From NCBI GenBank assembly GCA_959606065.1, contig CAUHHV010000002.1, positions 56,575-120,574 on the forward strand: 64,000 nucleotides of DNA, given 5' to 3'. The translations under genes were made by a program, and so were the position numbers. The notes under the pieces are model-generated. The model saw nothing but the letters and a program-made list of their open reading frames with translations, had not been told where the DNA came from and made no database searches. The stretch comes from an uncultured Collinsella sp. (lineage in GTDB: Bacteria > Actinomycetota > Coriobacteriia > Coriobacteriales > Coriobacteriaceae). Positions 7,549 through 63,168 of this stretch are shown one piece after another; position 1 is the first letter of the stretch; each line of letters opens with the position of its first letter.

Positions 7549-7732
7549 CGCGATCCTCCCCTAGATATTTAGACAGTCAGTTGAATAGGCATACTAGGAG
7601 CATCGCCGACCCGTTGTGTTTCCCACCCGTTTCGAAACAATCGCGTAACGCACGCCCTACGAGTGGACACCGCCGACCTCAAGGGCGACAACATAGGCCC
7701 CAAGTTCGGCCTGTAAGCTCACTGCTTCAAAC

Positions 7733-7950
7733 ATCTCAATCTGTAACAGTAAGACCCAATTTCGACGACTAACTGTTACAGATCAAGATGTTTTCGAGAG
7801 ACGGTTCCGAATGTCTCAATCTGTAACACGAAGGGTCAGTTTTGGCGGTCAGCTGTTACAGATCGAGATTTTCCATAGGACCATTTCTTCCTGTCTTGAT
7901 CTGTAACACCTAGACCCAATTTCCATCCCCAGTTGTTACAGATCAAGACA
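7733..7950 (+). repeat. Tandem array of three family-1 hairpins (units about 7733-7789, 7814-7869, 7892-7950; 17-bp stems ..TCTCAATCTGTAACA / TGTTACAGATCAAGA.., 22-24-nt loops), each followed by a short T run; lies in the mntH 5' leader
   Basis: Read directly. Loops 1 and 3 share GACCCAATTTC. Unit 3 has a perfect 17-bp stem. Confidence 0.7.
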
Positions 7951-8071
7951 TTTCGGCAACCCCCTTTCCCCACCCCATTCAAATACAACTATTTTGTTAG
8001 TCATAGTTAACTTTTGAGCCTAAAACGGGTATCCTTTGCGGCGTCAAACAAACGGCACACAGGAGCGCACC

Positions 8072-9328: not shown

Positions 9329-9357
9329 TTGGGATGGCGTGACTGTCCAGATATAAC

Positions 9358-9375
9358 GTCTCAATCTGTAACACG
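9358..9375 (+). repeat. Partial (left-arm only) copy of the family-1 hairpin repeat, downstream of mntH
   Basis: GTCTCAATCTGTAACACG followed by a loop-like GTAAGGCCGTTTTAAACC. No right arm is present. Confidence 0.45.
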
Positions 9376-9397
9376 TAAGGCCGTTTTAAACCGTCAG

Positions 9398-10216: not shown

Positions 10217-10343
10217 AACGATCACTCCCCTAACTCGGGATTGAGCCTCATGGATGTATGTACCCACAAAAAAGGCGACGCACATACCGAACGCCGCCTT
10301 TGAGACATATGTGTCAGAACAGTAAGCAAGATGGAACGCCCGC

Positions 10344-10410
10344 AGTTGCGGTGAAATAGAGACTGAATAGCCCCTCAAACAGGCAAAACAGTCCGTATTC
10401 CACCGCAACT
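10344..10410. repeat. Family-3 67-nt palindromic element (AGTTGCGGTGAAATA...TATTCCACCGCAACT)
   Basis: Perfect 10-bp terminal inverted repeat with partly paired inner arms. One of three 67-nt copies in the window. Confidence 0.65.
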
Positions 10411-10422
10411 TATGCAGAGTGC

Positions 10423-10893
10423 CTAGCGGTTGCGTTCCTTAAGGGCGCGGTCGATCTCGCGTTGGACATCACGCTTGGCCATGTCCTCGCGCTTGTCGTA
10501 GAGCTTCTTGCCGCGACCCAGACCCAGCAGCAGCTTTACGCGGCCGTCGTTATTAAAGTAGAGCTCCAACGGAACCAGCGCATAACCACGGTTGCGAAGT
10601 TTGCCGTCAAGAAAGTCGATCTCCTTGCGGTGCAGCAGCAGACGACGCCGACGGTCGGGATCGCGATTCCACACGCCACCATGGCTATAGGGGTGGATAT
10701 GCAGGCCGACGAGCCAGCACTCCCCGCCGCGGATCAGCGCGAAGGTATCGGTGATCTGGCAGGCGCGCTCGCGAATCGACTTGACCTCGGTGCCGCTCAG
10801 TTCAATGCCACACTCAAATGTCTCATCGATAAAGTACTCGTGATGCGCCGAGCGATTCTTGGAAATGAGCTTGCGCTCGCGCTTACTGGGCAT
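10423..10893 (-). CDS. smpB: SsrA-binding protein SmpB
   Basis: 156-aa core MPSKRERKLISKNRSAHHEYFIDETFECGIELSGTEVKS... The ORF extension upstream of that start is discounted. Confidence 0.9.
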   Translation of the reverse strand: MPSKRERKLISKNRSAHHEYFIDETFECGIELSGTEVKSIRERACQITDTFALIRGGECWLVGLHIHPYSHGGVWNRDPDRRRRLLLHRKEIDFLDGKLRNRGYALVPLELYFNNDGRVKLLLGLGRGKKLYDKREDMAKRDVQREIDRALKERNR

Positions 10894-14762: not shown

Positions 14763-16898
14763 CTAATGGATAAGCTTAAAGTCCAAGTGCCCACGCGTGG
14801 TATTGACGCGCGAAACCTCGATAATCACGCGCTGGCCCAGTTCATAGCGAGTCCCCGTGTCGGCGCCCGTCAGCGTAAGCGCATCCTCGTCGAACTCGAA
14901 CCACTCGTTGCCCAGACTCTTGATCGAAACCAAGCCTTCGACCTGCGTCAGGTCCAAGCGCACAAAGAGGCCCATGCTGCTGACCCATGAGACCGTTCCG
15001 GCATAGCGCTCGCCCAGGCGATCCTCATAGTACTGGGCAATCTTGATCTTTTGCGTCGCATGGCTAGCGGCATCTGCCGCGCGCTCGGCATCGCTGCATG
15101 CGCGGCAGATCTGCGGCAGAATGCGCGGCAGCGACTCGCGCCCCTTGCCGATCAGCCGCGGTGTACGGACCAGGGCGTCCTTGCCGCCGAGCTGCTCATA
15201 GGCCAACTGCAGTTTGAGCACGCGGTGCACCACCAGATCGGGGTAGCGACGGATGGGACTCGTAAAGTGACAGTAGCACGGCGCGGCGAGCGCAAAGTGG
15301 CCCTCGTTGCGCGGCTTGTACAGTGCGCGCTGCATGCTGCGCAGAAGCAGCGTGTTGACGAGCGGTGCGTTGGCCGTACCGGCGGCAGCATCAACTGCAG
15401 CCTGTAGCTCATCGGGACTCCCCAGGGCGATACCGGCAGCACGGCGATCGTCGATGATGCCCAGCTGCGCCAGCGCAACGGCGGCACCGTGCAGGCTATC
15501 GGGGCTCGGATCCTCATGCACGCGATAGCAGGCCTCGATATCACGGTCTGCCAGCCACTCTGCAACGCACTCGTTGGCGAGTAGCATGGCTTCCTCGATA
15601 AGCGACGTGGCACACGAACGCTCGCGCGCCACAATCTGCACGGGTACTCCGTCCTCATCCAATAGAGCGCGAATCTCGGCCGTGTCAAAATCGACTGAGC
15701 CGCGGGCACGACGAATACGACGGCGAAGTTCGGCGAGTTCGTTGGCGGCGACAAGGAAATCGCCGAGGTCGACGTTATAGCCGCGAGCAGTTTCCTCGCA
15801 CGCAAGACCGCGCTCAAGCGCCTCCTCGCGCGAGGCCTCAGCAGCCGCAACATCCTCAGCGGCGCCTTCCAGCACCGAATACTCAACCGCGTCGGCACGC
15901 ACCAGCAGCGCCTCGGCGCCGTCATAGTCCATACGCACACGCGAGCGAATCACGCTGGGGTACGGATCGTAATGCCGCACGCGACCCTGCGCATCGAGCT
16001 CAATATCAACGGTAAACGCAAGACGGTCCTCGTCAGGGCGAAGCGAGCACAGGTCACAGGACAGGCGTTCGGGCAGCATGGGAAGCACGCGATCGGCCAG
16101 ATACACCGATGTCGTACGATGGCGAGCCTCAAGATCGATATGCCCGTCCCAAGCCACATAGTGTGAAACGTCGGCGATATGCACGCCCAGCTTGTAGCCA
16201 CCCTCGGGCGTACGCTCCAGCGAAATGGCATCGTCAAAGTCGCGCGCGTCGACCGGGTCGATCGTGATGACAAAGCGGTCGCGCAGATCGCGGCGGAGCG
16301 GATCCTTAAGCGCTGCGGACACATCGAGCGAAAGCCCCTCGGCCTCGTCTAGCGCGGCCTCGGGATAGCTATCGGTATAGCCGTAACGCGCCATCACATA
16401 TTGAACACCCAAATCGGGCGCGTCATCTCCGCCAATGCGGCGTTCGATCGTCACGGTACCCGATTCCAGGCGCGTCGGGTAGGTCAAAATGCGTGCGACA
16501 ACGGCATCACCCGGGCGGACGCCCAGGCGATCCGCCGAGGTATCCTCGGGCAGAATGAAGAAGTCGGCCTTCAGACGCGAATCGAGCGGCTCAATCACAC
16601 CGAGCGGACCGGCGGTCTGGTACGTACCCACCACGCTTACGGCTGCGCGCTCAACCACGCCTTCGATCACGGCGCGCCGTTCACCGTGTGGGCTGTTCTT
16701 AATGCTCACGGCAACGGTATCGCCATCCATGATCTCGCGCTTACCGCGGCCCATGACCTTGTAGTCGCCGTTTTCGGTTACAACGTAGGCGCTATGCTCA
16801 TGGAGCTGCACGCGTCCGGTCAGGCTCGGACGGCGTTCGCTGCGCACCGGCCCGCGCTTATTGCGAGCTCCACGCTTATGCTTGTTATTGCGCCCCAT
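14763..16898 (-). CDS. rnr: ribonuclease R (RNB family 3'-5' exoribonuclease with C-terminal S1 domain)
   Basis: 711 aa with an RNB catalytic region and a C-terminal S1 domain. Basic N-terminus. Confidence 0.85.
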   Translation of the reverse strand: MGRNNKHKRGARNKRGPVRSERRPSLTGRVQLHEHSAYVVTENGDYKVMGRGKREIMDGDTVAVSIKNSPHGERRAVIEGVVERAAVSVVGTYQTAGPLGVIEPLDSRLKADFFILPEDTSADRLGVRPGDAVVARILTYPTRLESGTVTIERRIGGDDAPDLGVQYVMARYGYTDSYPEAALDEAEGLSLDVSAALKDPLRRDLRDRFVITIDPVDARDFDDAISLERTPEGGYKLGVHIADVSHYVAWDGHIDLEARHRTTSVYLADRVLPMLPERLSCDLCSLRPDEDRLAFTVDIELDAQGRVRHYDPYPSVIRSRVRMDYDGAEALLVRADAVEYSVLEGAAEDVAAAEASREEALERGLACEETARGYNVDLGDFLVAANELAELRRRIRRARGSVDFDTAEIRALLDEDGVPVQIVARERSCATSLIEEAMLLANECVAEWLADRDIEACYRVHEDPSPDSLHGAAVALAQLGIIDDRRAAGIALGSPDELQAAVDAAAGTANAPLVNTLLLRSMQRALYKPRNEGHFALAAPCYCHFTSPIRRYPDLVVHRVLKLQLAYEQLGGKDALVRTPRLIGKGRESLPRILPQICRACSDAERAADAASHATQKIKIAQYYEDRLGERYAGTVSWVSSMGLFVRLDLTQVEGLVSIKSLGNEWFEFDEDALTLTGADTGTRYELGQRVIIEVSRVNTTRGHLDFKLIH

Positions 16899-19264: not shown

Positions 19265-19392
19265 GGCCGGGCGCAGGGTTACCTCCCAAATCGTCCTCGC
19301 GCATGGCCTGCATTTGTCCTGCTCCTGCGGAGCTGCGGACAAACGCCGGCCTGCGCTGCGGAAAGATTTGGGAGGTAACCCTGCGCCCGGCC
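19265..19392. repeat. 128-nt palindromic MITE-like element with perfect 28-bp terminal inverted repeats (GGCCGGGCGCAGGGTTACCTCCCAAATC) and a partly self-complementary interior
   Basis: Read directly. It explains the mirrored pseudo-ORFs 19190..19441 and 19243..19425 in the track. Confidence 0.75.
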
Positions 19393-36318: not shown

Positions 36319-37161
36319 ATGATTGTGTTTTCCGATATGGATGGGACGCTGCTGACGAGCGATAAGCAAATGAGCGATGCCACCTGGGCGATGCTCGACG
36401 AGCTCGCACATCGTGGCATCGAGTTTGTTCCCTGCACGGGACGTCCACTGTCGGGCATCTTTGAGCCCATTCTCGCCCATCCCGCCGTGCACTACGCGGT
36501 CTGTGCCAACGGCGCCAGCGTCTGGCAGCTCGACGAGGATACGCCCACCGACGCCTCGCGCGCCACGTGCATCTTGAGCCGTCCGCTCGACCGTGGCATT
36601 GCCCACCGCATCCATCGCATTGCCGCCGGCCACGATGTGACCTTCGATATCTTCGCGGACGGGCAGTGCTTCCTCCCCCGCTCGCTCTACACGCGCCTGG
36701 ACGAATTCTGCGGCGGCGACCCCCACATCGCGGTTTCGCTCAAGCGCACACGAACACCGATCGACATGAATATCGACAGCAAGATCGACGAGGTCGAGAC
36801 GCTCGAACGCATCGCCATGTACTGGCACGACCCGGCCGATCGCGACGCCATCGCGGCGGAGCTCGACACGCTCGGAGGCATTGAGGTCACACGTTCGTAC
36901 GCCATGAATATCGAGGTCATGGGCGAGGGCGCCACCAAGGGAACGGCCCTCACGTGGTTGTGCGAGCATCTGGGCGAACCCCTTGCCGACGCCTGGGCGT
37001 TCGGCGACAACATCAACGACATCCCCATGCTGCAGGCAGCGGGCCACGGCATGGCCATGATCAACGCCGAGCCCGAGGACCGCGAGGCCGCCGACGCCAT
37101 CACCGAATACGACAACGACCACGACGGCGTCGCCCGCACCATCATGGCCGCCCTCGCCTAG
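36319..37161 (+). CDS. Cof-type HAD-IIB family hydrolase
   Basis: N-terminal DMDGTLL motif and C-terminal GDNINDIPML. Confidence 0.8.
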   Translation: MIVFSDMDGTLLTSDKQMSDATWAMLDELAHRGIEFVPCTGRPLSGIFEPILAHPAVHYAVCANGASVWQLDEDTPTDASRATCILSRPLDRGIAHRIHRIAAGHDVTFDIFADGQCFLPRSLYTRLDEFCGGDPHIAVSLKRTRTPIDMNIDSKIDEVETLERIAMYWHDPADRDAIAAELDTLGGIEVTRSYAMNIEVMGEGATKGTALTWLCEHLGEPLADAWAFGDNINDIPMLQAAGHGMAMINAEPEDREAADAITEYDNDHDGVARTIMAALA

Positions 37162-37267
37162 TCATTAGGGACGTTCTTGAATGACTAGTCGTTGGGGACA
37201 GTCTTCTCGAAAAAGCTGCAAGGGCTGTCCCCCACTGCCGGCAGAAAAGGAACGTCTCCATCTGCCG
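37158..37267. repeat. Composite hairpin cluster between convergent HAD genes: CTAGTCATT-[AGGGACGTTCTTG]-AATGACTAG, GGGGACAG..CTGTCCCC, then GCCGGCAGAAAAGGAACGTC (family-2 related)
   Basis: Read directly. Shares the GGAACGTCCC / GCCGRCAGAAAAGGAACGTC motifs with 1251-1321. Confidence 0.55.
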
Positions 37268-37269
37268 GA

Positions 37270-38064: not shown

Positions 38065-38237
38065 AGAAAAGCTCCCTTCGGGCTTGTTGGAATCGAACGT
38101 GTATCCGATTCCAACGTACCCAAAGGGAGTTCAAATAAGACTCCGCGGGCGTAAACGTTACAAGGACCTGGCAAATAGCTCACACATGCCAGAGATCCTA
38201 CGGTCGTGGCGCCAGGCGACACGCCACCCCGACGGCC

Positions 38238-38270
38238 AGTCGTTTAAGAACGTCCCCGATGACTAGTCGG
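38238..38270. repeat. Hairpin related to 37158-37188 with its loop inverted (CCAGTCGTT-[TAAGAACGTCCCC]-GATGACTAGTCGG); overlaps the adenine deaminase stop
   Basis: Same GACTAGTC stem, with the GGGACGTTCTT loop in reverse-complement orientation. Confidence 0.5.
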
Positions 38271-40083
38271 CGTAGGTGAAGGTCGTGACGTCGAACATGC
38301 CCTCGGGGCGAATGCGGAGCGTCGGGATGACCGGCAGGGGCAGGAAGATGATGCCCATGATGGGGTCGAGCGGCGACTCAATACCCATGGCGCGCGCCTT
38401 GACCATAAAGTCGTCGTGCTGCGCGGCAACGTCCTCGGCCGTGCCTTCGCTCATAAGGCCACCGAGCGCCAGCGGAATGCGCGCCACGACCTCTCCGTTG
38501 CGCACCAGCACGTGACCACCTTGGCCCACGGCCTCAACGGCGGCCATCATATCGGCGGCGTTGTCGCCCACCACGCACACGTTGTGCGAGTCGTGGCCGA
38601 TCGTGGAGGCAATGGCGCCACCCGTGATGGTAAAGCCGCGCACCCAGCCGCGACCGATGTGCTTGCCGACAAGACCCAGGCCAGCGGGGCCGTCGCCGTC
38701 GGCGCCCTCGGCTTGCAGCGACACGCCGCGGCCGTGGCGCTCGATCAGCATAATGCGACGCAAGTTCTCGTCAGTCTCGGGACGAACCATGCCCGTGATG
38801 GCCTTGCCCGGCACCACGTCAATCACGGCCTCGCCCGGCTTAAAGGCATAGTCGAACACGTCGAGCGATAGCTTCGGCAGCTTAACGGAGGCGCGCAGCT
38901 CATCGGCAAGGGCCGCAACCTCGGCCATCTCGGGTGCAATCTCGCCCACAAAGGTGCCGTCCTGCGCCACCAAAGCACCGGCGGCATATACGCGATGCGG
39001 AGCCGTGGCAAACGTCAGGTCATTGAGCACCAGCAGGTCGGCACGCTTGCCCGGGGCAATCGCACCGCGGAGCTCGTGCGGGTCGCGGCAGCCGTGATCC
39101 AGGCCAAACGCCTCGGCCGTGGAGAGGGACGCCATAGAGATAGCGACCACGGGGTCGATACCGGCCTCAATCGCCACGCGGCAGGCATTGTCGATCATGC
39201 CGGTCGCAAGCGCATCGGAAGGGGCGCGGTCGTCAGTCGCAAAGCAGCAGCGGCGGGCGCGCGCGGGATTCTCCAGCAGCATCGGCGACAGGTTGGCCAG
39301 ATCATGGCTGCACGTACCCTCGCGCAGCATCACGTACATGCCGCGAGACAGCTTGTCGAGCGCCTCCTCGGGAATCGTCGACTCGTGGTCGGCGATAATG
39401 CCCGCCGCGGCATAGGCATTGAGGTCCTTGCCGGCAACGAGTGGCGCATGGCCGTCGACCTGCTTGGACGGCGTCTGGTTGGCAGCGTCGATACGAGCAC
39501 AGGTCTCGGGATCGGCCATAAAGACGCCCGGCAGGTTCATCATCTCGCCCAGGCCAAAGACATCACCCGGATATTCGGCAAAAAACGCCTGCATATCAGC
39601 AGCGGTGATGACGGCACCGGCCTGCTCGTCGGGCAGCGCGGGCACGCACGAGGGCATCATGTACTTGATGGAAATAGGAGCGCGACGGCCGTCCTCGATC
39701 ATAAAGCGCAGGCCGTCCAGGCCGGAAACGTTGGCGATCTCGTGGCTGTCGGCAATGGCAGTGGTGGTACCGCGCGTCGCCGCCATGCGCGCATACTCGG
39801 CAGGGCGGATGTTCGAAGATTCGATATGCAAGTGCCCGTCGATAAAACCGGGGGCAAGATAGCGGCCCTGGCAGTCGATGACTTCAGCCGCCTCGTAGGT
39901 GCCAGCAGCGTCATCGCGACCGTCGTAGAGCACGCCGACGATTACGCCATCCTTGACGGCAACGCTACCGGGCGCCACGCGCTGGCCATATACGTCGACA
40001 ATCTGCGCATTGGTAAACAGCGTGTCGACGGGCACGCGACCCTCGGCAGCGTCGATCACAGACCTCATGACCTCAACGGACAT
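38263..40083 (-). CDS. ade: adenine deaminase
   Basis: Amidohydrolase metal-binding motif GFIDGHLHIESS in a domain architecture of about 600 aa. Start trimmed to MSVEVMRSVIDAAEG. The ORF is open upstream to 40164. Confidence 0.85.
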   Translation of the reverse strand: MSVEVMRSVIDAAEGRVPVDTLFTNAQIVDVYGQRVAPGSVAVKDGVIVGVLYDGRDDAAGTYEAAEVIDCQGRYLAPGFIDGHLHIESSNIRPAEYARMAATRGTTTAIADSHEIANVSGLDGLRFMIEDGRRAPISIKYMMPSCVPALPDEQAGAVITAADMQAFFAEYPGDVFGLGEMMNLPGVFMADPETCARIDAANQTPSKQVDGHAPLVAGKDLNAYAAAGIIADHESTIPEEALDKLSRGMYVMLREGTCSHDLANLSPMLLENPARARRCCFATDDRAPSDALATGMIDNACRVAIEAGIDPVVAISMASLSTAEAFGLDHGCRDPHELRGAIAPGKRADLLVLNDLTFATAPHRVYAAGALVAQDGTFVGEIAPEMAEVAALADELRASVKLPKLSLDVFDYAFKPGEAVIDVVPGKAITGMVRPETDENLRRIMLIERHGRGVSLQAEGADGDGPAGLGLVGKHIGRGWVRGFTITGGAIASTIGHDSHNVCVVGDNAADMMAAVEAVGQGGHVLVRNGEVVARIPLALGGLMSEGTAEDVAAQHDDFMVKARAMGIESPLDPIMGIIFLPLPVIPTLRIRPEGMFDVTTFTYAD

Positions 40084-58113: not shown

Positions 58114-58671
58114 CTATTTCTTGAACGGGAAACCGAAGGCGTCCAGAAGGGCCTTGGCCTCCTCATCGGTGTTGGCGGTGGTCACGAAAGTGATGTCCAT
58201 ACCACGCTGGTGATCGACGGAGTCGAAGTCGATTTCGGGGAAGATGAGCTGCTCGGTGACGCCCATGGAGAAGTTACCACGGCCGTCGAAGCTCTTGGCG
58301 GAGATGCCGCGGAAGTCGCGGATACGGGGGATTGCGACAGAGGTCAGACGATCGAAGAACTCCCACATACGGTCGCCACGCAGGGTAACCTTGCAGCCGA
58401 TCGGCATACCAGCGCGCAGGCGGAAGGTAGCGATGGACTTGCGGGCACGGGTGATCATCGGCTGCTGGCCGGTGATGGCGCGCAGGTCGCGCACGGCACC
58501 GTCGATGGCCTTGGAATCGGTAGCGGCCTCGCCGACACCCATGTTCACGACGATCTTCTCAAACTTGGGGATCATCATGACGTTCTCGTACTGGAACTTG
58601 TCCTGAAGCTGCTGCTTGACCTCGTTGTTGTACTTGGTCTTCAGACGCGGCACATACTTCTCTTCTGCCAT
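58114..58671 (-). CDS. rplE: 50S ribosomal protein L5
   Basis: [49 protein letters not shown]... Confidence 0.95.
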
Positions 58672-58912
58672 TGTTCACTCCTTCTTGGGGTTTTAAGCAC
58701 GGGGCGTGGCCACGATGGGTTGTCCTCGTGCCTCCTGGCTGCATCCGCGCCGCTCATGGCATTTCGCGGTTTGGACTCGACGCAGCAGGAGCCGACAAAA
58801 CAATCGGTACTATACGCGCATTGGGTGCGTATTTCCAGAAAAACCTCGTCTGCCTGCACAACTCCACAACTCCCCCGCACAAATTGATCCCTAGGGCACG
58901 GAGGAAAACAGC

Positions 58913-58979
58913 AGTTGCGGTGAGATAGGGACCGTTTGACGGCTTAACAGGCTTTAACAGTCCGTATTTCACCGCAACT
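58913..58979. repeat. Family-3 67-nt palindromic element (AGTTGCGGTGAGATAGGGACCG...CAGTCCGTATTTCACCGCAACT), upstream of rplE
   Basis: Same length and termini as 10344-10410 and 61707-61773. Confidence 0.65.
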
Positions 58980-58996
58980 CATGTATGGGGATGCGA

Positions 58997-60040
58997 TTAG
59001 CGCTTGCGGGGGACGAGCTTGGTGCGGCGCAGGTGAATCATCTCGGCAGCGATGGAGATGGCGATCTCCTCGGGATCCTCGGCCTCGATGGCAACGCCGA
59101 TCGGCAGGTGCAGCTCGTCGATCTGGTCCTGCGTAAAGCCCTCCTGCTCCAAACGGGCGCGCACAAAGGCCGTCTTGCGGCGCGAGCCCAAGCAGCCCAG
59201 ATAGGCGGGTTTAGCGCGCATGGCCTGAATCACCACGTCGATATCGGACTTGTGGCCTGCTGTGGCCACGACCACCAGGTCGCGCGGGCCGATGGGGCAC
59301 TGCTTGCTCAGGTTCTTGTAATCGACCAGGCGACGATCGTAGACACCGGGCACCCATTCGGGCGTCAGCGTGCCGGGGCGGTCATCGCACGCCACAACGG
59401 CAAAGCCCGCCGCCGTGAGTACGCGCGCCGTCGCAGCGCCCACGTGTCCGCAGCCAAAGATGTAGGTCAGGCCCTCGGGGCAGAGCGTCTCGATGTGCGC
59501 CGGGGGAATCTCGGAGGCGGCGTTGGTGTAGGTGACCTTACTCCCCTCCTCCACCAGCGAAAGCTCGGGGCAGCCGGCAATGGTATGGCGCGATGTCTCG
59601 CCATGGTACTCAACCACATCGCCCTCGAGCGCGCTCGCGATAAACGGCTCAAAGTCGATGACGAAGTCGCCGATGCGCCGATAGGCCAAGACGTCGGCAA
59701 CCGACTGGAACAACGGTGCCTGGGTCGAGTCCAGATGCAGGTAGCACAGGCAGATGGCCCCGCCGCAGATCATGCCGGTATCGGAGTTCTCGCCGCCCAT
59801 GGTGTAGCGGACCAGACGCGATTGCCCTGCGGCCAGCAGCTCGCGCGCCTCGTCCAGCGCAAAAAGCTCAATCTTGCCGCCGCCGATGGTGCCCGCTTGG
59901 CTGCCATCGGCAAAGACGGCCATCCAGGCGCCCACGCCGCGTGGTGATGACCCCGCCGTACCGGCCACTACCACCAGCTCGCACGTCTCGCCAGCACGCA
60001 GGGCGGCAAGCGCCGCATTCACAACATCGAGCTTTTCCAT
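58997..60040 (-). CDS. yqeB: XdhC/CoxI-family accessory protein (YqeB-like, selenium-dependent molybdenum hydroxylase system)
   Basis: 347 aa with an XdhC N-domain and a Rossmann-like C-domain, in a locus context with yqeC, a hydantoinase and mocA-like. Confidence 0.7.
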   Translation of the reverse strand: MEKLDVVNAALAALRAGETCELVVVAGTAGSSPRGVGAWMAVFADGSQAGTIGGGKIELFALDEARELLAAGQSRLVRYTMGGENSDTGMICGGAICLCYLHLDSTQAPLFQSVADVLAYRRIGDFVIDFEPFIASALEGDVVEYHGETSRHTIAGCPELSLVEEGSKVTYTNAASEIPPAHIETLCPEGLTYIFGCGHVGAATARVLTAAGFAVVACDDRPGTLTPEWVPGVYDRRLVDYKNLSKQCPIGPRDLVVVATAGHKSDIDVVIQAMRAKPAYLGCLGSRRKTAFVRARLEQEGFTQDQIDELHLPIGVAIEAEDPEEIAISIAAEMIHLRRTKLVPRKR

Positions 60041-60946: not shown

Positions 60947-61681
60947 ATGGGAACGACGAGCGGAAACCTTGCCTCCGCGCTCAAGATCGAGCCGGGCATT
61001 ACCGCAATTATCGGCAGCGGTGGCAAGTCGACCTTGCTAAAGACGCTGGGTCTCGAGCTCATGCGCGCTGGCGGCCGCGTGCTCCTCTGCACCACCACGC
61101 ACATGTTTCCCGTCGCCGGCGTGCCGTGGGACGGGTCAAACCGTCGCCTGGATGCCGCGCCTTGGAAGCCGGGTGCCGCGCATGTCCCCGGCTGCACCTG
61201 CAAGGTATGCGCTGGCATGAGCCGCGGAAGCATCTGCCAGGCGGGTGTTTTGGACCCGGAGACAGGCAAGCTCTCCGCCCCCGCCGAGCCGCTCGGCGAG
61301 CTGGCACGGCGCTTTAACTATGTGTTGGCCGAGGCAGATGGCAGCAAGCAACTCCCGCTCAAGGCGCATGCCGCCTGGGAGCCGGTAATTCCCGCCGCCA
61401 CGGCAAACGTTGTCTGGGTCGTCGGCGCCTCGGGGCTGGGCAAGCCCGTCGCCGAGGTTGTCCACCGCCCCGAGCTCTTCTGCGAGCGCTGCGACTGCGA
61501 GCCTACCGACATCGCCACGCCCGAGCGCGTCGCCCAGGTGCTCAATGCCGAGATGCAGATGCTGAACCTAAACAATGCCCGTATCATGCTCAACCAAGTC
61601 GACACGCTTGCCGACTCAACGATAGCCGACCGCTTCCAGGCAGCCCTCGGCCGCCCCGTCGTCGCCACCAACCTCAAGTAG
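60947..61681 (+). CDS. yqeC: probable selenium-dependent hydroxylase accessory protein YqeC
   Basis: 244 aa with N-terminal P-loop-like IIGSGGKSTLLKTL. Locus context supports the call. Confidence 0.65.
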   Translation: MGTTSGNLASALKIEPGITAIIGSGGKSTLLKTLGLELMRAGGRVLLCTTTHMFPVAGVPWDGSNRRLDAAPWKPGAAHVPGCTCKVCAGMSRGSICQAGVLDPETGKLSAPAEPLGELARRFNYVLAEADGSKQLPLKAHAAWEPVIPAATANVVWVVGASGLGKPVAEVVHRPELFCERCDCEPTDIATPERVAQVLNAEMQMLNLNNARIMLNQVDTLADSTIADRFQAALGRPVVATNLK

Positions 61682-61706
61682 CTGGCGCTGCCCCAGCAGG
61701 CCTATA

Positions 61707-61773
61707 AGTTGCGGTGGAATAGTTCCTGAAACGGCCTATTTGGCGGCTAAACAGGAACTATTCCACCGCAACT
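61707..61773. repeat. Family-3 67-nt palindromic element; this copy has a perfect 22-bp stem (AGTTGCGGTGGAATAGTTCCTG / CAGGAACTATTCCACCGCAACT)
   Basis: Read directly. Lies between convergent yqeC and the hydantoinase. Confidence 0.7.
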
Positions 61774-61800
61774 GCGGAGGGAAATCCGGTGATCTTCCTG

Positions 61801-63168
61801 CTAGCGGGGCACGTAGCGACCGGGCTGGGCCCCGGTGGGCTCGCCGTCGCGCGCGGCCAGCACGCCGTTCACAAACACGGCCTTGGCGCGGCCGTGCGCC
61901 TCAAAGCCCTCGAGCGGCGTGTAGTCCACGGCCTGATGCTGCGTCGCGGCGCTAATCGTCCAGCGCGCCTTGGGATCCCACACGCACACGTCGGCATCGG
62001 CGCCCTCGGCAAGACAGCCCTTGTGCGGATACATGCGAAAGACGCGCGCCGGGTTCTCGCTCATCAGGCGGCACAGATCCTCGGGACCCAGCTGTCCCTC
62101 AAAGCTCGTAGCGATCGCGACGGGGCGATGCTCCACGCCGGGTCCGCCGTTGGGAATCGCGCGGAAGTCGTCGCGCCCGCGGTCCTTTTGCCCGTGCAGG
62201 TTAAAGCTACAGTGGTCGGTCGCAATCGTATCGATCTCGCCGGCCACAAGCGCCTCGCGCAGTGCCGCACGGTCGCCGGCATGGCGCAGCGGCGGACTCA
62301 TCACGTACTTGGCGCCCGCAAAGCCGTCCTCGCCCTGCTCCAGATAGCAGGTGTCGTCGAGCATCAGATACTGAGGGCATGTCTCGACATAGATGTTCTT
62401 CTGCCCGCGCGCTTTGGCAGCGCGAATGGCCTCGAGCCCCAGCTTGGTCGAAAGGTGCACCACGTTGACCGGAGCGTCCCCGGCCAAGTGCGCCAGATAC
62501 AGCAGGCGGCTCACGGCCTCGGCCTCACACACGTCCGGACGGCTGAGCGCATGGCCCTCGGGCCCGTGGATACCCTGCTCAAACACGCGCTTCTGCAGCG
62601 CGTTGACCAACGTGCCGTTCTCGCAATGCACGCACAGGATACCGCCCACGCGCTTGAGCTCCTCCAGCACCTCGAGCGTCTCGGCATCGTCCAGGCGCAG
62701 ATGGTCGTAGGCAAAGTAGGTCTTGAACGACGATACGCCCGCCTCGCGCATGGCCGAAAGATCGGCGCGGTTGCGCTCATTCCACTCGGCAAGCGCCATA
62801 TGGAAGGCATAGTTGGCGGTGCAGGTGCCGTCGGCGCGATGATGCCACTCGACCAAGGCATCGGGCATGGTCACGCCACGATCGGCCGTCGCGTAGTCCA
62901 CAATGGTCGTCGTGCCGCCGCAGGCAGCCGCGCGCGTGCCGGTCTCAAAGCTATCGGCTGTCCAATCCATGCCGGTCCAGCACTGCATGTGCGTGTGGCC
63001 GTCGATAAAGCCGGGAAACACCCAGCAGTCGGTGGCGTCCTCGACGGTATCGCCCTCGCCCGGCTCGATTGCCGCGGCAATCCGCACAATCTTGTCGCCC
63101 TCCATGGCAAGATCGGCGCGGCGAAGCCCCTGGGGCGTCACGAGTGCGCCGTTTTTGATGATGATCAT
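61801..63168 (-). CDS. hyuA: cyclic amidohydrolase (D-hydantoinase/dihydropyrimidinase family; HyuA/YgeZ-like)
   Basis: Metal-binding motif GFIDGHTHM and a later Lys region, on a 455-aa scaffold. Confidence 0.8.
   Translation of the reverse strand: MIIIKNGALVTPQGLRRADLAMEGDKIVRIAAAIEPGEGDTVEDATDCWVFPGFIDGHTHMQCWTGMDWTADSFETGTRAAACGGTTTIVDYATADRGVTMPDALVEWHHRADGTCTANYAFHMALAEWNERNRADLSAMREAGVSSFKTYFAYDHLRLDDAETLEVLEELKRVGGILCVHCENGTLVNALQKRVFEQGIHGPEGHALSRPDVCEAEAVSRLLYLAHLAGDAPVNVVHLSTKLGLEAIRAAKARGQKNIYVETCPQYLMLDDTCYLEQGEDGFAGAKYVMSPPLRHAGDRAALREALVAGEIDTIATDHCSFNLHGQKDRGRDDFRAIPNGGPGVEHRPVAIATSFEGQLGPEDLCRLMSENPARVFRMYPHKGCLAEGADADVCVWDPKARWTISAATQHQAVDYTPLEGFEAHGRAKAVFVNGVLAARDGEPTGAQPGRYVPR

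Follow-up and report, generated by a model that had tools for sequence, protein, structure and literature searches.

Repeats of the ERIC/IRU (enterobacterial repetitive intergenic consensus/intergenic repeat unit) and Correia (NEMIS) families are imperfect palindromes of 100–160 nt with conserved inverted ends, which lie in transcribed intergenic regions in either orientation and, as long RNA hairpins, affect mRNA processing and stability. To our knowledge, no transposase is known for these repeats in most of their hosts. The REPIN (repetitive extragenic palindromic [REP] doublet forming a hairpin) consists of two conserved inverted ends and, between them, a spacer that is fixed in length but less conserved, and has the capacity to form a hairpin (Bertels and Rainey; PMC3116915). 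Here, we describe a family of 67-nt palindromic elements represented by three copies in a 64,000-nt stretch of DNA (hereafter, the window) from an uncultured Collinsella sp. (GenBank assembly GCA_959606065.1, contig CAUHHV010000002.1, positions 56,575–120,574 of the forward strand). The copies are located at positions 10344–10410 (copy A), 58913–58979 (copy B), and 61707–61773 (copy C) of the window. With a probability of about 0.6, we consider the family to be dispersed non-coding palindromic repeats of the REP/REPIN or miniature inverted-repeat transposable element (MITE) kind, specific to Collinsella and retained in the 3' untranslated regions (3' UTRs) of genes. The family is restricted to Collinsella and was previously undescribed; the kind of repeat is already known from other bacteria.

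All three window copies are 67 nt long, start with AGTTGCGGTG, and end with CACCGCAACT, as had been stated in an earlier note made from the letters of this DNA alone. Copy C, which has type-2 arms, forms a perfect 22-bp stem (ATAGTTCCTG/CAGGAACTAT) with a predicted folding energy of −45.6 kcal/mol (z = −10.5); its description in the same note as a perfect stem with a different inner arm was therefore correct. Copies A and B have the other, type-1 inner arm (A/GGGAC..GTCC), and 3 of the 22 positions are non-Watson-Crick in each of them, namely positions 11, 16, and 17 in copy A and positions 12, 16, and 21 in copy B, where position 12 is a G·U wobble. The predicted folding energies of these two copies were −30 to −38 kcal/mol (z = −7.4 to −8.7). 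Compared with shuffled sequence, the z values of the window copies ranged from −7.4 to −11.4 on either strand, and the E values of 2e-16 to 9e-16 per copy obtained with the family profile excluded a chance resemblance. A scan of the whole 64-kb window for arm matches, exact or with one mismatch, returned just the six known arms, with no extra copy or half-copy. The intergenic location given for the copies (between smpB and a flavin reductase gene, upstream of rplE, and between yqeC and hyuA) also agreed with the NCBIfam assignments of the neighbors, which were SmpB, a flavin-reductase-like protein, ribosomal protein L5 (rplE), an XdhC-family protein, YqeB, YqeC, and D-hydantoinase.

The genome-wide pattern search that the earlier note had proposed was run on the GTDB species genomes and returned at least 120 loci (labelled L001–L120), nearly all of them from Collinsella or unnamed Coriobacteriaceae; the family counts given here are built on the matches listed. 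Among these matches, 124 of the 130 copies with exact termini are 67 nt long, the others being 65, 66, or 68 nt, so that the length holds throughout the family. The profile search of the listed loci and the window detected at least 142 copies at about 50 orthologous sites, with imperfect termini in just 12 of them, and the overall collection comprised more than 200 copies, likewise at about 50 orthologous sites. The Collinsella aerofaciens record NZ_OY725717.1 (PLSDB; pieces L204–L208; circular, 899,693 bp, searched as a 900-kb record) contained 33 copies, which are spread unevenly, with none in the first 200 kb and three in one 50-kb stretch elsewhere. The data suggest roughly 50–100 copies per genome. 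This record is named "plasmid 6," yet recA, ftsK, numerous genes for ribosomal proteins, and transfer RNA synthetase genes are located on it, and it is therefore evidently chromosomal DNA. One typical copy was found on a contig labelled Alloprevotella sp. (L066, CAVGCW010000044.1), which is most likely a Collinsella contig mis-binned into an Alloprevotella metagenome-assembled genome. A collection of viral contigs contained only two genuine copies, and a blastn search of a phage collection gave no match to the family. No Rfam family matched the element at the gathering threshold or at E ≤ 10, and no such repeat was found described for Collinsella or Coriobacteriia in the literature.

The unit consists of two conserved arms of 22 nt and a centre with a fixed length of 23 nt, the sequence of which differs by site. 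The outer 10 nt of the arms are nearly invariant, and positions 11–22 and 46–57 are conserved in a few mirrored variants; across about 50 sites, it is the arm sequence that is conserved, beyond pairing alone. Two arm subtypes, defined by positions 17–19/49–51, prevail among the centre families: GGA/TCC in 25 of 47 and TTC/GAA in 19 of 47. The centres form 42–47 distinct families, are nearly always 23 nt long, and follow the loose pattern TTT-GC-rich-A/T-GC-rich-AAA. The core is flanked by a weaker palindromic extension, CCATCCCCTCATA-core-TATGAGGGGATGG or, in its fuller form, (C)CATCCCCTCATA-core-TATGAGGGGATG(G), and the full unit is therefore about 90 nt long; according to the predicted folds, it can form a hairpin of roughly 25–30 bp. 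The C-rich outer motif, reading inward, was present on 54% of the gene-end flanks and about 40% of the other flanks (39–54% across the flank types), compared with 2–10% for a G-rich control. TA or ATA abuts the core on 40–70% of flanks and reads as an extension of the palindrome. No internal hairpin of the arms is visible in the consensus; in all predicted folds the arms pair with each other. The resemblance of the element to parS or operator-like half-sites (GTGAAAT/ATTTCAC) is no more than loose. A guide- or spacer-like role of the centre was rejected: the 19-mers of the three window centres had no exact match in the viral contigs, and none of the 47 centres matched 17 nt or more outside the elements in 1.65 Mb of Collinsella DNA.

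The pairing of the arms was analyzed in a set of 47 sequences, one per centre family, with 500 column shuffles as the control. The outer 22-bp stem was 96% paired, compared with 88.4% in the shuffles, and its covariation score was 0.214 compared with 0.101; no shuffle out of 500 was as high in either measure. Thus, pairing is retained in the further copies of the family. The covariation is carried by a few subfamily-defining pairs, namely 17–19/49–51, 16/52 (G-C, C-G, or mismatched), and 12/56 (A-T or T-A), and the variants C16-G52 and T12-A56 are mirrored in both arms. At pairs 11/57 and 22/46, the frequencies equal the product of the column frequencies, i.e., the two arms vary independently. 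At several sites, type 1 occurs in one species and type 2 in another (sites 0, 1, 3, and 12, copy C compared with L100, and the smpB site). In these cases the switch also affects the centre, which is inverted in some of them, and hence the element is replaced as a whole instead of undergoing a double mutation in place. The earlier note had read the arm differences of the window copies as compensatory stem changes. The mirrored changes and the excess of pairing bear this out; however, the changes mainly reflect two discrete subtypes and not independent events.

In the centre, no covariation was detected in a fixed register (46.5% paired, compared with 46.9% in the shuffles). When the register was left free, the native centres folded slightly better than chimeric halves (−46.5 and −45.3 kcal/mol, respectively; p ~0.007), a weak effect, and the z value of −1.6 against mononucleotide shuffles mostly reflects positional composition. 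In copies with a single adjacent gene end, the outer stem contained 37 G·U and 51 A·C oppositions on the sense strand. The polarity of the element (T-rich side first) relative to the upstream gene was random, with 17 units in sense and 18 in antisense. The lack of a G·U preference together with the random orientation argues against a strand-specific RNA gene, and nothing points to selection on a single transcribed strand. The data are compatible with a symmetric need, which may concern a palindrome in DNA, a hairpin formed by either strand, or an orientation-independent RNA hairpin, and support the conclusion that selection keeps a symmetric hairpin-forming palindrome.

These results bear directly on the possibility that the element is a strand-specific structured RNA, either a small RNA gene or a cis-regulatory 3'-UTR motif, whose stem is kept by selection at the RNA level. 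Such an RNA would account for the very stable hairpin (z = −7 to −11), for the position of copy A inside the smpB transcription unit, for the conservation of copies in place, and for the slight folding advantage of the native centres. Nevertheless, we consider it very improbable, given the A·C oppositions outnumbering G·U on the sense strand, the nearly equal orientations, the independence of pairs 11/57 and 22/46, and a centre without fixed-register covariation. In addition, no promoter-like site tied to any of the three window copies was found, Rfam contained no match at E ≤ 10, and the arm sequence itself, beyond its pairing, is conserved across about 50 sites. A reading as classic RNA covariation was thus not supported by these tests.

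Orthologous copies are constrained in place: their rate of evolution is 3–5 times lower than that of synonymous sites. At 19 sites where orthologous copies with the same allele could be compared, third codon positions of the adjacent gene had a pairwise divergence of 0.169, as against 0.032 for its first and second positions, 0.032 for the inner arms, and 0.060 for the centre; the difference from third positions was significant for both the arms (p = 4e-6) and the centre (p = 5e-5). The outer arms were left out of this test because the loci had been picked by the exact outer-arm sequence. A similar picture was obtained at the smpB site, for which 80 metagenome loci had been retrieved via SmpB and were hence unbiased as to the element. 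In the 48 loci with the major type-1 allele, nucleotide diversity (pi) was 0–0.03 in the element and about 0.09–0.14 in the adjoining non-coding flanks, and at the 3' end of smpB, polymorphism was present in 17 of 19 synonymous positions. Within alleles, the change per site was three times less in paired inner-arm positions (0.071) than in unpaired ones (0.217).

Conservation of the copies is accompanied by turnover. Among 78 metagenome loci, the smpB junction was occupied in 69, unoccupied in about 7, and filled by another palindrome in 2. Strains whose SmpB proteins are 99% identical differ in what the junction contains: a type-1 element, one of two forms of type-2 element (one with another centre and one at another offset), a different palindrome (GGTGGGACAAA...TTTGTCCCACC), or sequence of no relation to these. 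The different palindrome, GGTGGGACAAA-N13-TTTGTCCCACC, follows smpB once in L139 (3471–3545), and in L137 (3471–3600) it is present twice, in inverted orientation, with 37 nt in between. No relics of the element were detected in the unoccupied smpB alleles, where the local alignments were not significant (p = 0.05–0.7). At another site, L083 is occupied and L102 is empty, and the junction is not that of a clean insertion.

Polymorphism of this kind, with presence, absence, and replacement of copies, would be expected of a classical MITE, i.e., a deleted derivative of an insertion sequence (IS) with a DDE transposase, for instance a TA-targeting IS630-like element, whose arms would be the terminal inverted repeats and whose transposase would be encoded elsewhere. 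The small size, the terminal inverted repeats, the lack of coding capacity, the TA or ATA next to the core, and the occurrence of several IS families in Collinsella are all compatible with this origin. We nevertheless regard it as unlikely. Within 1.65 Mb of Collinsella DNA, no longer element bounded by these ends (AGTTGCGGTGRAATAG-like) was found, and solo arms were rare. The copies do not regularly have TA on both sides, and their flanks extend the palindrome instead of forming a direct duplication. Moreover, the centres are nearly all different and exactly 23 nt long, unlike the products of a recent burst, and the copies are constrained in place.

A second form of turnover involves neighboring genes. 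At five sites, a single copy in one genome corresponds in another to two copies that flank 0.3–1.8 kb of ordinary genes (element-gene-element, E-gene-E). Segments bracketed in this way include L045:643–1570 compared with L048/L035, L094 with L111, L112 with L057/L063/L084, L051 with L097/L099, and the arrangement in L092:4725–5978. Among the products of the bracketed genes are a GntR regulator, an AAA ATPase, an AbiEi-like protein, a peptidase, an oxidoreductase, and a zinc-ribbon protein; since all of them are ordinary genes, a transposase between the paired copies was ruled out. In L092, the oxidoreductase gene is bracketed by two identical copies that share 19 nt of one flank. Chimeric copies were observed in L048, where the crossover is in the left arm, and in L035, where it is in the right arm; these differing crossover points are as expected of homology-driven exchange between copies. 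The alternation between one copy and E-gene-E indicates that the repeats mark or promote the cassette-like gain and loss of accessory genes.

Such exchanges could also be attributed to a host DNA site, at which a nucleoid protein, gyrase, or a recombinase would bind or recombine and whose effect, including the cassette-like gain and loss, would be mainly on DNA. This explanation agrees with the conserved arm sequence and spacing, as for a dimer on two half-sites, with the independent variation of position 11/57 between the arms, with the absence of strand polarity, and with the E-gene-E and single-copy alternatives at 5 of about 50 sites, including the chimeric copies and the pair of identical copies in L092. 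The variable crossovers, though, are more in line with homology-driven recombination than with a fixed site-specific cut, no recombinase gene recurs beside the copies, and the bias toward positions after stop codons is left unexplained; we consider a host DNA site unlikely.

This positional bias is pronounced. Among the 121 listed copies with two called genes, the neighbors were convergent in 47 cases, tandem in 68, and divergent in only 6. The distance from the stop codon to the core is usually 9–27 nt, with a peak at 12–17 nt, and the RefSeq (PGAP) annotation places one copy in the gap of a convergent gene pair, 13 nt past a stop codon. The element is the only hairpin at most sites, with no other terminator. 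A T-rich tract immediately follows the element at 9 of 57 junctions and at none of the three window copies; a separate canonical terminator was located upstream of the element at 5 of 57 junctions and within 160 nt downstream at 10 of 57. The identification of the element as a canonical intrinsic terminator was ruled out by the scarcity of T-tracts and by the terminator that copy A has downstream of it. It was also ruled out that the element supplies or targets the stop codon, as the share of TGA among the stops is 8% beside elements and 8% genome-wide, and the smpB stop codon is unchanged in alleles without the element. Across all called genes of the window and L001–L120, the stop codons comprise 8% TGA, 46% TAA, and 46% TAG despite a G+C content of about 60%.

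The three window copies illustrate these positions. Copy A (10344–10410, no strand assigned) has the type-1 arms ATAGAGACTG and CAGTCCGTAT and the centre AATAGCCCCTCAAACAGGCAAAA. It is separated from the smpB stop codon (10423–10425) by a 12-nt spacer on the minus strand (10411–10422), which reads GCACTCTGCATA in the sense of smpB and represents a weak form of the outer motif with ATA at its end; some strains have CCGTCCTCCATA or CCACCCTTCATA in its place. About 40–50 nt downstream of the copy, a GC-rich hairpin followed by a T-tract was read from the sequence as the intrinsic terminator of smpB (approximately 10266–10303, minus strand); it is kept in the metagenome loci as GGCGGCGTCCGTTATGGGCGCCGCCTTTTTT. 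With the smpB stop codon on one side and this canonical terminator on the other, copy A is part of the smpB 3' UTR. Its orthologs were found in 5 GTDB genomes (site 6) and in the 69 occupied metagenome loci mentioned above.

Copy B (58913–58979, no strand assigned; site 1) has type-1 arms and the centre TTTGACGGCTTAACAGGCTTTAA, and its ortholog in L012 is a type-2 element. The outer flank motif (58980–58996, minus strand; TCGCATCCCCATACATG in gene sense) extends up to the stop codon of the XdhC-family gene (58997–58999). In this region (58114–58997), rplE is preceded by the selenium-molybdenum cofactor cluster XdhC/YqeB/YqeC and copy B instead of rplX, and the minus strand has a promoter-like site at 58837–58809; it therefore seems that the spc ribosomal operon restarts at rplE. 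Copy C (61707–61773, no strand assigned), with the type-2 arms given above, is the sole hairpin in the gap between the convergent yqeC and hydantoinase genes. In its orthologs L100, L028, and L108, a type-1 element is present with an inverted centre. The flank toward the hydantoinase stop codon (61801–61803) occupies 61774–61800 on the minus strand and ends, in gene sense, in ...TTTCCCTCCGC, a C-rich outer motif; the flank from the yqeC stop codon (61679–61681) occupies 61682–61706 on the plus strand and ends in ...GCCTATA.

The mechanism that we propose for dispersed repeats retained at gene ends rests on their symmetry and position. One sequence-specific protein would recognize both arms, as a DNA palindrome or as a hairpin; it may be an element-copying enzyme or a host factor that binds DNA or RNA. 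The arms would be alike and symmetric because this one protein must recognize both, and the mirrored changes and the two arm subtypes would follow from arm symmetry and not from strand-specific selection on RNA. In the mRNA, the hairpin would probably act as a 3'-end barrier or a terminator-like structure near the terminating ribosome, and the copies may be retained because of this action. Liang, Rudd and Deutscher reportedly found in 2015 that E. coli REP hairpins located less than about 15 nt from the stop codon stall terminating ribosomes and trigger tagging by transfer-messenger RNA (tmRNA). The stop spacing of 12–17 nt in Collinsella, which also applies to the element after smpB itself, makes ribosome stalling and tmRNA tagging a lead only.

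The protein partner was sought by tblastn with E. coli RayT, IS200 TnpA, and IS608 TnpA as queries against 1.39 Mb of Collinsella DNA around about 200 copies; the RayT query was 100% identical to the annotated RayT. No REP-associated tyrosine transposase (RAYT) was detected in this DNA, and the 900-kb C. aerofaciens record, which has 33 copies, contained no match to RayT at E ≤ 10. The sole Y1 match was an ordinary IS200 TnpA (L122:3742–4170), which is not beside an element. This protein is 50% identical to the Salmonella IS200 TnpA, and its gene is inserted just past the smpB terminator in a strain with no element there. The suggestion that a RAYT or an IS200-like tnpA stands behind the repeats thus found no confirmation in the DNA searched.

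For the same reason, it is rather unlikely that the elements are true REPINs, mobilized by a single-copy RAYT that would bind the hairpin in single-stranded DNA. The layout does match, with inverted conserved ends, a spacer that is fixed in length, hairpin capacity, and mirrored changes (PMC3116915). The long persistence and constraint in place also agree with the REPIN literature, and Y1 transposases do exist in Collinsella, as the IS200 TnpA demonstrates. On the other hand, the arms have no small REP hairpin of their own, and a survey of RAYTs makes no mention of Actinobacteria.

The interpretation as REP/REPIN- or MITE-like repeats retained in 3' UTRs must itself be weighed against several observations. 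Besides the missing RAYT, the 1.65 Mb yielded neither an IS with matching ends nor a longer element bounded by them, and solo arms there were limited to two degenerate examples; in the same C. aerofaciens genome, nothing arm-like was detected in the stretches with annotated IS21, IS30, and IS3 copies. The search for a partner gene covered about 40% of one genome together with the neighborhoods of the copies. Neither a clean target-site duplication nor a clean empty site could be defined, and TA adjoins both ends only in part. The centres are almost all particular to their site, unlike in a recent MITE burst, and constraint in place is unexpected for purely selfish DNA. Finally, the role at the RNA level is one that we infer. 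No recurrent recombinase gene occurs beside the copies, and no integrase beside those inspected. Quite improbable, in our estimation, is a broader scheme in which the arms are sites of a Collinsella-specific, non-RAYT protein system with two specificities matching the arm subtypes. Such a system would copy or exchange the elements and mediate the cassette-like gain and loss of flanked genes, and the centres would carry locus-specific information.

Other inverted repeats were observed in the window. A second palindromic family, (A)TCTCRATCTGTAACA-centre-TGTTACAGATYGAGA, occurs at 121–192, 7721–7792, 7801–7872, 7881–7952, and 9355–9397. In 1.39 Mb of Collinsella DNA, the distance between the 10-mers ATCTGTAACA and TGTTACAGAT is exactly 25 nt in 220 of its 221 copies. 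The copies often form tandem arrays with an exact 80-nt period, and the family has the same design as the 67-nt elements (conserved arms and a semi-variable centre of fixed length); in Rfam, it matched only miRNA models at chance level. A third family, AAGGGCTGTCCCC...GCCGGCAGAAAAGGAACGTC, was found at 1227–1345 (a palindrome with 55-nt arms) and 37212–37268 of the window and in L208 (~15075–15103), and a part of it, AAAAGGAACGTCCCC..GCCGGC, directly adjoins a 67-nt element in C. aerofaciens NZ_OY725717.1. In addition, a perfect 28-nt inverted repeat, GGCCGGGCGCAGGGTTACCTCCCAAATC, is present at 19265–19292 and 19365–19392, with its arms 72 nt apart. Two 68-nt inverted arms at 37130–37197 and 38227–38294, with 71% complementarity and a distance of 1029 nt, may represent the two ends of a small mobile element.

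The genus Collinsella is abundant in the human gut and comprises very many species, and no repeat of such a kind appears to have been described in it or in Coriobacteriia. The family may be used as a marker for strain typing and for locating assembly breakpoints, and it marks hotspots of accessory gene gain and loss. If the hairpins do shape mRNA 3' ends near the terminating ribosome, the expression of dozens of genes per genome, smpB included, could be affected. The family also offers a gram-positive, high-GC test case for the question of whether REPIN-like "resident" repeats can, in the absence of a RAYT, be kept over time under purifying selection. Two of its features are notable: the constraint in place on a site-specific centre and the coexistence of two symmetric arm types.

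A comparison with the known systems places the family closest to the REPINs and the related bacterial interspersed mosaic elements composed of REPs (REP-BIMEs), with which it shares the layout, the mirrored changes, tens to hundreds of extragenic copies, the persistence at orthologous sites, and occasional higher-order arrangements (PMC3116915). It differs from them in that no RAYT was found in the 1.39 Mb or in the 900-kb record, that the arms have neither an internal REP hairpin nor a GTAG-type tetranucleotide, and that two symmetric arm subtypes have the same termini. The host also differs, as Collinsella is an actinobacterium (Coriobacteriia), whereas REPINs and RAYTs are those of Pseudomonas and E. 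coli. Since no RAYT and no internal REP hairpin were found, the element is REPIN-like, and its membership among the REPINs is not established. The 3'-UTR location, the occurrence in both orientations, and the lack of a detected partner resemble ERIC and Correia repeats; however, the Collinsella element, with a core of 67 nt and an extended length of about 90 nt, is shorter, its internal sequence is not conserved between copies, no clear TA duplication was seen, and it is restricted to one genus. With intrinsic terminators it has in common a GC-containing hairpin just past stop codons, often between convergent genes and usually the sole hairpin there, but it departs from them in the T-tract present at only 9 of 57 junctions, in the separate terminator after copy A, and in an arm sequence common to about 50 sites. 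The attC sites of integrons are similar in being imperfect palindromes with conserved ends and a variable middle, located at gene 3' ends, and in forming gene-plus-element modules that are gained and lost. The identification as an attC site was ruled out by the order of the end motifs, the absence of arrays, and the lack of an integrase at the inspected copies. In the Collinsella family, the end motifs are reversed (AGTTGC...GCAACT instead of RYYYAAC...GTTRRRY), the copies are dispersed next to genes in both orientations, and the crossovers vary in position.

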